Shown: positions 22,752 through 28,482 of the stretch, in pieces
How the letters are laid out: each line of letters begins with the position of its first letter
Position numbering within the stretch: the stretch's first letter is position 1
NCBI GenBank assembly: GCA_024407725.1
Contig: JAKSVZ010000009.1
Span: 1-32,000, forward strand
Reading direction: 5' to 3'
DNA length: 32,000 nucleotides
Source of the DNA: Opitutales bacterium
GTDB lineage: Bacteria > Verrucomicrobiota > Verrucomicrobiia > Opitutales > UBA9783
Notes under the pieces: model-generated
Seen by the model: the letters and a program-made list of their open reading frames with translations, nothing else
The model's database searches: none
What the model was told of the DNA's origin: nothing
Position numbers and translations under genes: made by a program

Positions 22752-22846
22752 CTTGACTTACATAGCCAAATAGGATATAAGTCTTTTGCTACCTGTAATC
22801 CTTATAGAATTAATTTTATTGTAATAAGAACGTAATAAAAGTCAAG
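22752..22846. repeat. TTGAC/GTCAA-bounded element A (95 bp) with face-to-face promoter-like ends
   Basis: Plus strand: TTGACT 22753..22758, 17-nt spacer, TATAAG 22776..22781. Minus strand: TTGACT 22845..22840, 16-nt spacer, TACAAT 22823..22818. A-tracts flank both ends. Confidence 0.7.
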
Positions 22847-22894
22847 GAAAAATATACTTTAATCTCACCGATAAAAAGCCAAGAGCATTTAAAA

Positions 22895-22991
22895 CTTGAC
22901 AAAATAAAGTTTTATCTTACAATCACAATTAATGCATTTATTGAACATATGGCTCAATCTTATTTTAAAGATTGATACCATTAATGTCAAG
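22895..22991. repeat. TTGAC/GTCAA-bounded element B (97 bp)
   Basis: Plus strand: TTGACA 22896..22901, 16-nt spacer, TACAAT 22918..22923. Minus strand: TTGACA 22990..22985, 17-nt spacer, TAAAAT 22967..22962. A hairpin terminator follows immediately. Confidence 0.7.
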
Positions 22992-23022
22992 AAAAAAGCC
23001 TCACTTTTGGTAAGGCTTTTTA
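22992..23022. terminator. Bidirectional intrinsic terminator (gap on the minus strand, element B transcript on the plus strand)
   Basis: A6, then stem AAGCCT (22996..23001) paired with AGGCTT (23013..23018) around an 11-nt loop, then T5. It lies 7 nt past the gap stop. Confidence 0.75.
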
Positions 23023-23028
23023 AAACTT

Positions 23029-24057
23029 TTAGCAAAATTCAGCTAATTTCTGCAATAAATCGACGCAGCGATTGCTATAACCCCATTCGTTATCATACCA
23101 ACTGACCAACTTAAAGAATCGGTCATTCAGTTCGATTCCCGAACCGGCATCAAAGATGGATGAATGCGTATCATGGATAAAGTCACTGGATACCACCTCA
23201 TCCTCTGTATAGCCCAAAATACCCTTTAAAGCTCCATTGGATGCTGCTTTCATAGCCTCACAGATAGCTTTGTAAGACGTGGATTTTACGGTACGAACCG
23301 TCAAGTCAACAACCGAAACCGTTGGAGTAGGTACTCGGAAAGACATACCCGTTAATTTGCCCTTTACAGCCGGCAAAACCAATCCTACCGCTTTTGCTGC
23401 TCCTGTGGTTGACGGAATAATATTGATTGCTGCGGTACGTCCCCCCTTCCAGTCCTTTTTCGAAGGACCATCAACGGTTTTTTGAGTAGCGGTATAACTA
23501 TGAACCGTCGTCATCAACCCTTCCTCAATGCCAAACTCATCTAAAACAACCTTGGTAATAGGCGCCAAACAGTTGGTGGTACAGGAAGCATTGGAGATTA
23601 ATGTATCCGACGCTTTGAGTTCTTGATCATTGACCCCCATCACAATAGTACGAATCCGATCCCCTTTACCCGGCGCTGTAATCAATACTTTCTTAGCTCC
23701 TGCCTTCAAATGACCTTCGGCTTTTTCATCCATCGTAAAGAGTCCTGTAGATTCAATCACCACATCAACCCCCAAATCTTTCCAAGGTAACGCTGCCGGA
23801 CCCTCTTTAACTGCCAAACAACGAATCTTCATTCCATTGACCTTCAAAGTATCCTCTCCCTCAGCTTCCACGGTTCCATTGAAACGACCTTGGATAGAAT
23901 CATATTTCAACAAATAAGCTAAATTATCCGCTCCTACCAAATCATTGATAGCTACCACTTCGAATGCGTTCCCCAATAGTCCGCGTTCCGCTATCGCTCG
24001 AAATACCAAACGACCAATACGGCCAAATCCATTGATGCCAATTTTTATCTTTTTCAT
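23029..24057 (-). CDS. gap: Glyceraldehyde-3-phosphate dehydrogenase
   Basis: Contains [16 protein letters not shown], the active site [12 protein letters not shown], and [12 protein letters not shown] 24057 is preferred over the upstream GTG at 24075. Confidence 0.95.
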
Positions 24058-24065
24058 ATGAGCAT

Positions 24066-24094
24066 ATTTTAGCACGTTCTATTAAAATCGTAAA
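24066..24094 (-). promoter_or_regulatory. Candidate proximal gap promoter
   Basis: Minus strand reads TTTACG (24094..24089), a 17-nt spacer, then TAAAAT (24071..24066). The -10 ends 8 nt before ATG 24057. Confidence 0.35.
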
Positions 24095-24286
24095 GAATGC
24101 GAATAGATGTCTTAACCCTCATCCTACCCCATCGCTAAAAAGCATAAAGAGACTTAAAGGAACCACAAAGCACTCGCATTAGGAACCAAAACCTTAAGCC
24201 ATCGCAAGCATTTCCCTGCTAAATTTAGTCCTAACACAACATCCTATAACTTAGTCGGACGCCTAAAAAAGATTGATGAAAACAGG

Positions 24287-24382
24287 CTTGACTTTTATCC
24301 TTATTAGGAATATAAATATATTCCTACTTTTGTGAATAGATTTGAATAATATTCTTATATAAGATCTTGTAAATAAGTCAAG
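24287..24382. repeat. TTGAC/GTCAA-bounded element C (96 bp)
   Basis: Plus strand: TTGACT 24288..24293, 17-nt spacer, TATAAA 24311..24316. Minus strand: TTGACT 24381..24376, 16-nt spacer, TATAAG 24359..24354. A perfect 9-bp inverted repeat, AGGAATATA-aa-TATATTCCT (24306..24325), straddles the plus-strand -10. Confidence 0.7.
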
Positions 24383-26215: not shown

Positions 26216-26310
26216 ATTGACAAATAGGTTATTTTTGAAATAATAATTCTATTGGACAACCTACAATAATGCTTCACATTTATTGTATAAAATCTTATAC
26301 AAAAGTCAAG
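26216..26310. repeat. TTGAC/GTCAA-bounded element F (95 bp)
   Basis: Plus strand: AAAAGATTGACA (TTGACA 26217..26222), 16-nt spacer ending in TGa, then AATAAT 26239..26244 (extended -10-like). Minus strand: TTGACT 26309..26304, 16-nt spacer, TACAAT 26287..26282. An 8-bp inverted repeat, TTGTATAA-aatc-TTATACAA (26283..26302), covers the minus-strand -10. Confidence 0.7.
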
Positions 26311-26547
26311 CAAAAGTGTTTTAAAAGGCACAAATACCCATAAATCCAAAGACATTTGTAAAACAATCCATTCAGGTGATACAGTGGGGCTGTAATAACC
26401 ACACCATAGCTAAACCAACACCTTGTTTCAAGGTATATAAGCCCAAGAATCCTAGAAAAAACACAACTTAAGAACGCATTACGCGCCTACCGAGTTCACA
26501 TTCCAATCAAACAAGAACCCCTAGCGGTATTTCTTTTAAAAAATTTC

Positions 26548-26623
26548 TGGTGGACGGTGTAGGATTCGAACCTACGACCCCCCGGATGTAAACCGGATGC
26601 TCTAACCGCTGAGCTAATCGTCC
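26548..26623 (-). tRNA. tRNA-Val (anticodon TAC), CCA encoded
   Basis: Hand-folded from the reverse complement GGACGATTAGCTCAGCGGTTAGAGCATCCGGTTTACATCCGGGGGGTCGTAGGTTCGAATCCTACACCGTCCACCA. D-arm GCTC/GAGC, anticodon loop TTTACAT, T-loop TTCGAAT. There is one A-C mismatch in the acceptor stem. Confidence 0.85.
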
Positions 26624-26680
26624 CCTATTAAAAAATAAAAACTTAACCTCTAAGGAAGCAATCCCTGCAATCCCTAAAGA

Positions 26681-26926
26681 TTACTCGCCGTCATCGCCAA
26701 TAGCGTTAACAGGACAAGTTTCTTTCGCCTCCATGCAACGCTCAACTTCGCCTTCCAAAGACGGTTGTTTCTTTACATAGGAAGCTCCATCGCTTGTAAA
26801 ATCAAACACCTCAGGAGCGATGTTGTGGCACATTCCACAATGAATGCATTGATTATCGACGTAAAAACGACCGCGTACGTTTTCTGAAAGTTTATCCTCT
26901 TTAACAGCCATGATTTCATTACACAA
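26681..26926 (-). CDS. Small 4Fe-4S ferredoxin
   Basis: CIHCGMCHNIAPEVF plus a distal ETCPVNAI cysteine pattern in about 76-81 aa. The start could be the second Met (MAVKEDK, 26911). Confidence 0.8.
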   Translation of the reverse strand: MCNEIMAVKEDKLSENVRGRFYVDNQCIHCGMCHNIAPEVFDFTSDGASYVKKQPSLEGEVERCMEAKETCPVNAIGDDGE

Positions 26927-27008
26927 AGCCCACTTGTACCGTCAAGCAGATTTATAAATATCCACAAAAGCTAGGCTTTAGGGGGGTATTTTTGCTAAAA
27001 TAAAGTAA

Positions 27009-28364
27009 ATGATTCATTTAGAACAAAGCCAAACACAATCGCAGGTATTGGCGCCCCAACTACGGCAGTCGCTCAAAATTCTGCAAGCATCCGCTATGGA
27101 TTTAAAGGCTTTTGTTCAAGAAGAATTAACCAACAATCCAACCCTTGAGGAAATCCCCAGTTCATCGAGCAAAGAACCTACCGATTCCATCGCTAACGGA
27201 GCAGAATGGAGCTCCAACTATGCCAACGATACTTCAGAAGCAAGCCAACGGCACGATTTCCTATTAAATTCACTGCAAAGTGAAGTGTCCCTCCAAAGCC
27301 ATCTGCAGGAGCAGGTTGGATGTTTGGATTTAAGCAAAAAGCTTAAGGAACTGGTTCTGTTCATCATTGGAAGCCTCAACCAAAAGGGGTTTTTGGATAG
27401 CTCCATCGATGAACTCATGCGCCAAACAGGATGCGATTACGATACACTCATGCACGCGTTATCGATTGTGCAGCAACTAGATCCTGTTGGTGTAGGCTGT
27501 TTTGATATTCCTTCCAGCCTCATGGCGCAATTGACCTATCAGCAAAAAGAGCATTCCCTCGCATTCAAAATCATTTCCCAATGTTATCCCCTTTTGTTGC
27601 ACAATAAGCTGAACGATATTGCGCGCGCCTGTTCCGCAAGTCTAAAAGACGTACAAGCCGCTATCCGCAACGATATTGCGCCTCTCAATCCAGCACCTGG
27701 AAGCGCTTACGCCCATCACCCCTCCCCTATCATCATTCCCGATGTAAAAATTTACAAAAATCCGTCCAACGAATGGGTCGTGGAGTTAAATCACACCTAC
27801 ATTCCTCAATTGCGCATTGGTTCTAACTACAAAGACTTACTGGCTCAAAACATTGATGCGAATGATCGGCGCTATCTCCAAATTAAAATGCGCTCCGGAC
27901 GCTTTCTCATTCAAGCCATCCTTCAGCGACAAAAAACCATTGAACGTATTTCACAGGCCATTTTGCAGTATCAACAAGACTTCTTTGACCATGGGGTCGC
28001 TTACTTAAAACCCTTAACCCTACAAACATTGGCAGAGTTTTTAAACCTGCACGAAACCACCATTAGCCGCGCAACCGCCAACAAATACGTCGACACCCCC
28101 TTCGGAGTCTTTAGATTTAAGTATTTTTTTACCAAAGGGTTAGCGCGCCATAATACCGACGAAAGTATTTCCAATGCGGTTATTAAGCAGGAACTGCGCA
28201 AGCTGATTGACCATGAAGACAAACAGCACCCCTTAAGCGATCAAGCGATGGTTGAGTTGTTCAAGAATAAACAAATTCAAATCGCACGCCGCACGATCAC
28301 TAAATACCGTAAGCAATTAGGAATTTTGCCTGTTCACATGCGCCGACAATACAGCGCATCATAA
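27009..28364 (+). CDS. rpoN: RNA polymerase sigma-54 factor
   Basis: N-terminal Q/L-rich region (LRQSLKILQ), a C-terminal HTH, and an RpoN box ARRTITKYRKQLGI. Confidence 0.9.
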   Translation: MIHLEQSQTQSQVLAPQLRQSLKILQASAMDLKAFVQEELTNNPTLEEIPSSSSKEPTDSIANGAEWSSNYANDTSEASQRHDFLLNSLQSEVSLQSHLQEQVGCLDLSKKLKELVLFIIGSLNQKGFLDSSIDELMRQTGCDYDTLMHALSIVQQLDPVGVGCFDIPSSLMAQLTYQQKEHSLAFKIISQCYPLLLHNKLNDIARACSASLKDVQAAIRNDIAPLNPAPGSAYAHHPSPIIIPDVKIYKNPSNEWVVELNHTYIPQLRIGSNYKDLLAQNIDANDRRYLQIKMRSGRFLIQAILQRQKTIERISQAILQYQQDFFDHGVAYLKPLTLQTLAEFLNLHETTISRATANKYVDTPFGVFRFKYFFTKGLARHNTDESISNAVIKQELRKLIDHEDKQHPLSDQAMVELFKNKQIQIARRTITKYRKQLGILPVHMRRQYSAS

Positions 28365-28385
28365 AAGGCATAACAAGGCAAAAAG

Positions 28386-28482
28386 CTTGACAAATTAGTC
28401 AAATTAAATTATCATCTGTATTGGAATACGGGGATGATAAGGATAATGATTTAATTTTATTTATATTTAACATTAAGTCAAG
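28386..28482. repeat. TTGAC/GTCAA-bounded element G (97 bp)
   Basis: Plus strand: AAAAGCTTGACA (TTGACA 28387..28392), 17-nt spacer, TATCAT 28410..28415. Minus strand: TTGACT 28481..28476, 16-nt spacer, TAAAAT 28459..28454. An 8-bp inverted repeat TTATCATC/GATGATAA (28409..28440) encloses an inner GTATTggAATAC palindrome. Confidence 0.7.

Follow-up and report, generated by a model that had tools for sequence, protein, structure and literature searches.

Promoters that face each other are known from several bacterial and phage control regions. At P2 Pe/Pc, 186 pR/pL, IS10 pIN/pOUT, bioA/bioBFCD, the Ecl18kI restriction-modification system and icsA/RnaG, two complete promoters oppose one another. 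Promoters are also carried by intergenic repeats, namely the Neisseria Correia elements, REP2 and the 'putative mobile promoters' (PMC3184786, PMC10969869, PMC3575422). In Correia elements the inverted repeats are 26 bp long, a TA duplication is present, the interior is conserved, and transcription from the promoters runs into the DNA outside the element (PMC3184786). Our survey of the literature returned only single-locus face-to-face promoters and outward-firing promoter repeats. Here, we examined a 32-kb stretch of Opitutales bacterium DNA (assembly GCA_024407725.1, contig JAKSVZ010000009.1, positions 1 to 32,000; hereafter the window) that harbors seven units of 95-99 bp, each bounded by CTTGAC and its inverted copy GTCAAG and each carrying two promoter-like sequences that point inward, toward one another.

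A first-pass annotation, made from the letters alone, had described seven such units with a fixed spacing, and both their positions and the spacing were borne out, with seven pairs found against 0.13 expected. The units are listed below with the predicted promoter of either strand (spacer length in nt between the two hexamers) and nominal start sites.

22752..22846, plus strand: unit A, 95 bp; plus TTGACT-17-TATAAG, minus TTGACT-16-TACAAT; nominal starts ~22788 (+) and ~22811 (-); in the pfk-gap spacer.
22895..22991, plus strand: unit B, 97 bp; plus TTGACA-16-TACAAT, minus TTGACA-17-TAAAAT; nominal starts ~22930 (+) and ~22955 (-); palindrome over the minus -10.
24287..24382, plus strand: unit C, 96 bp; plus TTGACT-17-TATAAA, minus TTGACT-16-TATAAG; nominal starts ~24323 (+) and ~24347 (-); between the abi terminator and gap, 210 bp upstream of the latter.
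25702..25800, plus strand: unit D, 99 bp; plus TTGACT-17-TAAACT (or, with a spacer of 15, TATAAA), minus TTGACG-17-TATTAA; nominal starts ~25738 (+) and ~25764 (-); the predicted minus promoter faces the Abi_C gene.
25917..26013, plus strand: unit E, 97 bp; plus TTGACA-18-AAAAAT (weak), minus TTGACT-17-TACGAT; an internal TTGACA-18-AATAAT is also present; nominal starts ~25954 (+) and ~25977 (-).
26216..26310, plus strand: unit F, 95 bp, left end ATTGAC; plus TTGACA-16-AATAAT with a TG extension, minus TTGACT-16-TACAAT; nominal starts ~26251 (+) and ~26275 (-).
28386..28482, plus strand: unit G, 97 bp; plus TTGACA-17-TATCAT, minus TTGACT-16-TAAAAT; nominal starts ~28422 (+) and ~28447 (-).

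Measured from TTGAC to GTCAA, all seven units span 93-97 bp, with a mean end-to-end distance of 94.6 +/- 1.4 bp, i.e. ~9.0 helical turns. We surveyed convergent TTGAC pairs in the window and in ~120 kb of relatives. TTGAC occurs 26 times on the plus and 32 times on the minus strand of the window, from which 0.13 pairs are expected per 5-bp spacing slot; seven pairs in a single slot correspond to P ~1e-10. A search of the window for TTGAC-N70-100-GTCAA retrieved seven matches as compared to 0.87 expected, and the other 10-bp spacing bins between 10 and 400 bp contained 0-2 convergent pairs each. Permitting one mismatch in the end pattern yielded no extra copy in the window. The regular spacing is a statistically robust observation. 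In addition, units A, B, C, E and F were found 100% identical in independent Logan assemblies of run SRR17543914.

The terminal hexamer is invariant at 13 of 14 ends, the exception being the ATTGAC at the left end of F, and the inverted identity of the unit ends extends over only 5-8 bp. On either side, the outer flank is an A-run of the plus strand (AAAAAGCTTGAC ... GTCAAGnnAAAA); this gives the units a polarity, and all seven are oriented alike. No clear periodicity was seen in the phasing of A-tracts, or in curvature, within the units.

Every one of the 14 ends has a -10-like hexamer 16-18 nt inward of its TTGAC, just as the first-pass annotation had proposed. The summed best match to TATAAT at spacers of 16-18 nt amounted to 66, compared with 47.6 in shuffled interiors, and none of 5000 shuffles reached this value. 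TAnnnT is fitted by 8 of the 14 ends (2.4 expected), and the -10 signal peaks sharply at offsets 21-22 from TTGAC and nowhere else in the unit. The units also give most of the top-scoring promoter matches in a 12-kb scan. The -10 signal is lacking in ~100 metagenome and viral-contig sequences that fit the end pattern by chance; these score mostly 3-7 each, as opposed to 8-10 for the seven units. Within each unit, the two -10 hexamers are 36-39 bp apart, placing the nominal start sites 23-26 bp from each other and facing. Given a positioned -10-like hexamer at all 14 ends, each unit reads as two face-to-face promoters: at the level of sequence, two complete opposed promoters with facing start sites are found, in support of the earlier proposal of face-to-face promoters whose transcripts overlap at their 5′ ends by ~20-26 nt. 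The geometry and the promoter-like signals are established here.

Little, in contrast, remains of the idea that the ends are special inverted termini. Beyond their short inverted identity and same-strand A-run flanks, their motif is an ordinary promoter motif. An A/T tract followed by GCTTGAC also stands singly upstream of tRNA-Tyr, tRNA-Asp and the open reading frame at 16593 in the window, as well as upstream of rplM and fdx in relatives that are only ~60% identical in RpoN. Since the motif thus occurs singly before tRNA and housekeeping genes, the apparent 'terminal repeat' is the upstream region of this lineage's ordinary strong promoters, which is a caution for annotation. Lone sites served as reference promoters:

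16519..16555, plus strand: lone reference promoter sharing the upstream motif; the sister copy reads AAGATTGACA-17-TATAAT.
30895..30937, minus strand: lone reference promoter upstream of tRNA-Asp, AAAAAGATTGACA-17-GATGAT.

Palindromes over one -10, likewise reported at first pass, do exist in B (minus promoter), C (plus) and F (minus). Their position and spacing differ between units, and no regulator gene adjoins the units in the window. Units D, F and G have TATTGRA in common after the left -10.

Hairpins with T-runs had been predicted directly after B, C and E and ~80 nt after G, and were confirmed at these places. The sequence thus also supports the earlier prediction of plus-strand RNAs of ~90-170 nt where terminators follow. 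Units A, B, F and G occupy 3′ regions ahead of terminators.

22993..23021: hairpin of terminator type, bidirectional, immediately following B and at the gap 3′ end; -11.5 kcal/mol, A-run before and T-run after.
24392..24418: bidirectional intrinsic terminator 10 nt after C; -17.1 kcal/mol, z = -5.1.
26019..26048: terminator-like hairpin with T-run after E; -7.1 kcal/mol, the weakest of the three.
28564..28645, plus strand: pair of T-run hairpins beyond G that may terminate rpoN and the plus RNA of G.
28521..28620, plus strand: probable eroded eighth unit (tentative).

The right module of the probable eighth unit (28602-28620) is identical to the right end of F at 17 of 19 positions, but has ATCAAG; AAAGCTAAC at 28521-28529 is, tentatively, its decayed left end.

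Neighbouring genes of the units are pfk, gap, an orphan gene with an Abi_C domain, tRNA-Val, fdx, rpoN and sucCD. Three sister assemblies, ~92% identical in DNA, were available for comparison (L121; L127/L128; L239, i.e. GCA_003521725.1). An 11-kb stretch including intergenic spacers aligns to the sister as a single block at 92%. The sister assemblies lack the island at window ~24120-26530, comprising units C-F and the Abi_C gene, and also lack ~325 bp between rpoN and sucC that contain unit G and the probable eighth unit. As rpoN and sucC abut in more distant relatives too, these insertions are derived. The edges of the missing blocks lie 24-220 bp from the nearest unit end and do not coincide with unit ends.

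24120..26530: AT-rich island of 2.4 kb, GC content 0.35 vs 0.43 in the window; abuts the 3′ end of tRNA-Val and holds units C-F and the Abi_C gene.
24467..25598, minus strand: orphan Abi_C-domain gene, with a frameshift at a G8/C8 run at ~25523-25530.

The pfk-gap spacer with units A and B could not be aligned to the sister by BLAST, and the sister's own pfk-gap spacer carries a single unit, A′ (L127 11268-11364, 97 bp), whose right promoter is degraded (TTGAT, with a displaced -10). Another unit, D2 (L239 489-587, 99 bp), sits at a different locus, between two Abi_C genes. D in the window, D2 and A′ are homologous, yet occupy different loci, and all units lie in AT-rich DNA that is absent from or replaced in sister genomes. 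Pairwise alignment of D, D2, A and A′ gave 64-81% identity for the left promoter modules and 50-61% for the right ones, with parts of the outer flanks up to 80% identical, while the centres, at 26-41%, are at the random level for their composition. Comparison of units within the window gave ~77% identity over 26-36 nt for several pairs of modules, with unrelated centres. The first-pass statement that the interiors are not conserved therefore holds for the centres and fails for the 26-36 nt beside the ends of some units. Family relationship and turnover between genomes are likewise established here.

The nine units in three genomes all measure 95-99 bp. That this length was kept despite saturated centres suggests that length itself is constrained. 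The sequence comparison suggests an old family, with purifying selection acting on both promoters and on the spacing between them, and does not resemble a recent transposition burst. An origin by local inverted duplication is unlikely, since a unit's own left and right modules resemble each other no more than modules taken from different units do.

No unit was found in ~95 kb of more distant relatives (L122, L125, L126, L235 and L236). When a genome collection was scanned with AAAAGCTTGAC-N83-87-GTCAAG, all matches among those listed (at least 120) were single chance matches. A stricter pattern gave 84 matches in JGI metagenomes and 22 in IMG/VR, all of them single and either GC-normal or microsatellite; with their poor -10 scores, these are chance matches. 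Four metagenome contigs (L164, L168, L190 and L208) contain a variable-length (TAA)n microsatellite between chance motif copies and are unrelated to the family. Blastn of the unit regions against plasmids and phages returned no match.

Our preferred reading, which we hold with about even confidence, is that the units form a lineage-specific family of compact cassettes, each consisting of two sigma-70-type promoters face to face. From the letters of the DNA we infer promoter activity, interference and any role in the cell. The promoter modules would be under selection, with the centre drifting freely and the total length held. With start sites only ~24 bp apart, an open complex at one would cover the other, and the promoters should compete: RNA polymerase at one promoter is predicted to occupy the start region of its counterpart. 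Polymerases that escape would leave through the opposite promoter, in both directions, and the opposed transcripts would share a complementary 5′ leader of 23-26 nt. A unit would thus amount to a portable promoter for both directions in which transcriptional interference and antisense pairing are built in, with a geometry like that of IS10 pIN/pOUT or the P2/186 switches. For units with a downstream gene (Abi_C in the case of D and E, gap in the case of C), expression of that gene would come from the minus promoter, with the plus promoter acting as a damper; for Abi_C, such damping would suit a potentially toxic gene. The plus RNAs of B, C and E would stop at the adjacent terminators after ~90-95 nt. 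The bistable switch and the sRNA cassette proposed at first pass are putative roles of the units.

Several observations weigh against this proposal. There is no recognisable gene for A, B, F and G to drive. The gap gene keeps its own conserved promoter-like sequence, TTTAC(G/C)-17-TAAAAT (window 24057-24094, minus strand; L127 12530-12560), and hence does not need unit C. The degraded right promoter of A′ means that function on both sides is not universal, and the +/-2 bp tolerance is tighter than simple interference requires. Finally, in the D-type units (A, A′, D and D2), the left -10 (TATAAGT) is complementary to the ACTTATA that follows the -35, so that the '-10' signal could partly reflect a hairpin.

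L127 11274-11310, window 22755-22790 and window 25705-25735: left hairpin of D-type units.

This hairpin comprises 6-9 bp, with a loop length that differs in each copy, and a T-run comes after it; a weak terminator acting in both directions may be overlaid on the promoter here.

As an alternative, the units may be a MITE-like (miniature inverted-repeat transposable element) non-autonomous mobile element, whose ends would be transposase sites that resemble a -35 and whose promoters would be incidental, as in Correia elements. We consider this unlikely. Inverted ends, a uniform small size and intergenic clustering would all be expected of such an element, and so would the restriction of the units to segments that differ between ~92% identical genomes and the homologous copies at non-homologous loci; moreover, a perfect 6-bp direct repeat, GGATAT, is symmetric around the sister copy A′. 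This repeat is confined to A′, however, and no consistent target-site duplication emerged over eight units, in agreement with the first-pass annotation, which had seen none. The inverted identity of the ends falls below the ~10 bp expected of terminal repeats, and the blocks missing from the sisters are 325 bp and 2.4 kb in size with edges away from unit ends. Further, the copies are too dissimilar for a recent burst, with centres at random identity; the degenerate and variably spaced TAnnnT is the signature of a promoter and not of a binding site; and a transposase is absent from the window, as are integrase and cas-like genes.

A second alternative, improbable in our view, takes the ends as paired CTTGAC half-sites ~nine turns apart, to be bound by a nucleoid or looping protein or used by a recombinase that inverts the segment between them. 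The fixed end-to-end distance, the near-invariant hexamer and the single orientation of all units are compatible with this. However, the motif stands alone before tRNA and housekeeping genes, and the positioned -10 hexamers are left unaccounted for. The factor that the first-pass annotation had imagined to bind two GCTTGAC half-sites is thus unnecessary for explaining the motif and leaves the hexamers unexplained. As for inversion, both the repeat (6 bp) and the segment (85 bp) are very small in comparison with those of known invertases, the homologous centres are not mutual reverse complements (the score of centre against reverse complement was at background), and no recombinase lies nearby.

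More speculative still, and very improbable, is a programmable cassette for silencing or immune memory in which two modules bracket a variable centre of 36-39 bp, or, alternatively, a jammed pair of polymerases, head to head, that insulates accessory DNA. In the cassette version the fixed length would reflect a measuring constraint, and both strands of the centre would be transcribed into a unit-specific duplex RNA of ~24 bp or a pair of guide-like 5′ leaders. If true, either version would amount to a bacterial regulatory element of a new class, one that has spread as a family. The central 24-mers of the seven units had no exact match in IMG/VR, which is a weak test as the host's phages are probably unsampled, and blastn of the concatenated centres against phages gave nothing significant (E = 1). 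CRISPR-like memory was rejected as a candidate, with neither spacer matches to mobile elements nor cas-like genes found in the window. A type I toxin-antitoxin module, or an antisense-controlled small open reading frame, was rejected too: no plausible open reading frame lies downstream of the nominal starts, inside or just after the units.

We give hardly any credence to a structured RNA or single-stranded DNA closed by a GCUUGAC/GUCAAGC stem, be it a small RNA family, an integron attC-like site or a large terminator. The ends can indeed pair, and 5 of 7 units fold better than shuffles (z = -2.3 to -5.1). The attC core is RYYYAAC/GTTRRRY, from which GCTTGAC/GTCAAGC departs by one base per side; units and attC sites also have in common ends near inverse core and core, a variable interior, a size of ~100 bp and one orientation. 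Yet this model fails its own tests here. RNAalifold recovered only an invariant 6-bp outer stem, in which two breaks are uncompensated and no pair covaries. Pairing of the ends stops after 5-8 bp, the units have no internal structure in common, and half-site folds (~42 nt inward) showed no consistent hairpin. In a search of Rfam 15, only tRNAs reached the gathering threshold and nothing overlapped a unit even at E <= 1. Unlike attC sites, the units have GAC/GTC in place of AAC/GTT, and therefore no GTT core, nor do they have a second (L) box that could pair, a folded bottom strand, an integrase in the window or a cassette array, the genes between them, gap, fdx, tRNA-Val and rpoN, being housekeeping genes. 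Lastly, chance promoter-like sequence in AT-rich, horizontally acquired DNA ('promoter islands') would fit the location of the units in AT-rich (GC 0.30-0.35) lineage-specific DNA and the abundance of promoter-like hexamers (41 found vs 26 expected), but is already refuted by the spacing statistics, as composition explains neither the fixed spacing (P ~1e-10) nor the fixed orientation, and as the shared motif extends beyond TTGAC and modules are conserved between genomes.

The only database twin of the Abi_C gene is hypothetical protein MJ218_02580 [Opitutales bacterium] in GCA_024500545.1, a verrucomicrobial and not a chlamydial genome, and a word-seeded search of 5.8 billion proteins found no homologue but the protein itself. 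Having no PADLOC match and no homologue beyond itself, the gene was rejected as a pointer to a known defence system. L239 contains the 3′ end of an Abi_C ortholog along with a second Abi_C paralog that is 25% identical; as in the window, a unit immediately precedes an Abi_C gene in L239. The 3′ flank of tRNA-Val carries the Abi island in the window, gap 30 bp from the tRNA in the sister genomes, and a block with a zeta-toxin and an M78-peptidase in a more distant relative (L125 2859-9600); it looks like an integration hotspot. Between sucD and tRNA-Asp, L127 has a restriction-modification module (16520-18350), comprising a DNA methylase in two pieces and an Eco47II-like endonuclease, that the window lacks. 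The promoter-like sequence of gap stops only ~8 nt short of the ATG, suggesting that the gap mRNA has almost no leader. Upstream of fdx, a 1-nt difference in a T-run shifts the usable start codon (window 26905-26926; L121 600-625), and the product comprises 76 aa in the window vs 79 aa in the sister assemblies. Far from the units, four tandem paralogous genes of 504-536 aa without Pfam match occupy window positions 1079-7397 on the minus strand; two that were compared are 52% identical and both contain an HELxH (zinc-metalloprotease-like) motif. With genes for type III secretion system chaperone-like proteins (CesT, TyeA) nearby, these paralogs could be an effector family.

If the promoters of the proposed face-to-face cassettes are active, the units offer at least nine naturally occurring sequence variants of a single interference geometry, with which the effects of promoter spacing, competition and 5′ antisense overlap on expression could be tested. 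They may also explain how accessory DNA is expressed or silenced in an uncultured, host-associated lineage of Verrucomicrobia. To our knowledge, no family of dispersed, fixed-geometry, inward-facing promoter pairs has been described.

Compared with promoter-bearing repeats, the units resemble Correia elements, REP2 and mobile promoters in being small, dispersed and intergenic, in carrying sigma-70-type promoters (predicted for the units) and in varying in presence among close relatives, and such elements can rewire the transcription of neighbouring DNA, as the units might. In contrast to Correia elements, the inverted identity of the units is limited to 5-8 bp, duplications are not consistent, the centres are random, and the promoters are predicted to fire inward. 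With the known face-to-face pairs, they share a 5′ overlap of tens of nt (36 nt in IS10 and 62 in 186), from which interference or antisense pairing is expected. Those pairs are single-copy, gene-specific control regions tied to repressors with defined operators; here, three genomes contain at least nine instances of one fixed geometry, most of them lacking a gene that they might control and none with a recognisable operator or regulator. A dispersed family of two inward-facing promoters at a fixed distance would join the switch-type promoter pairs with the promoter-carrying repeats.

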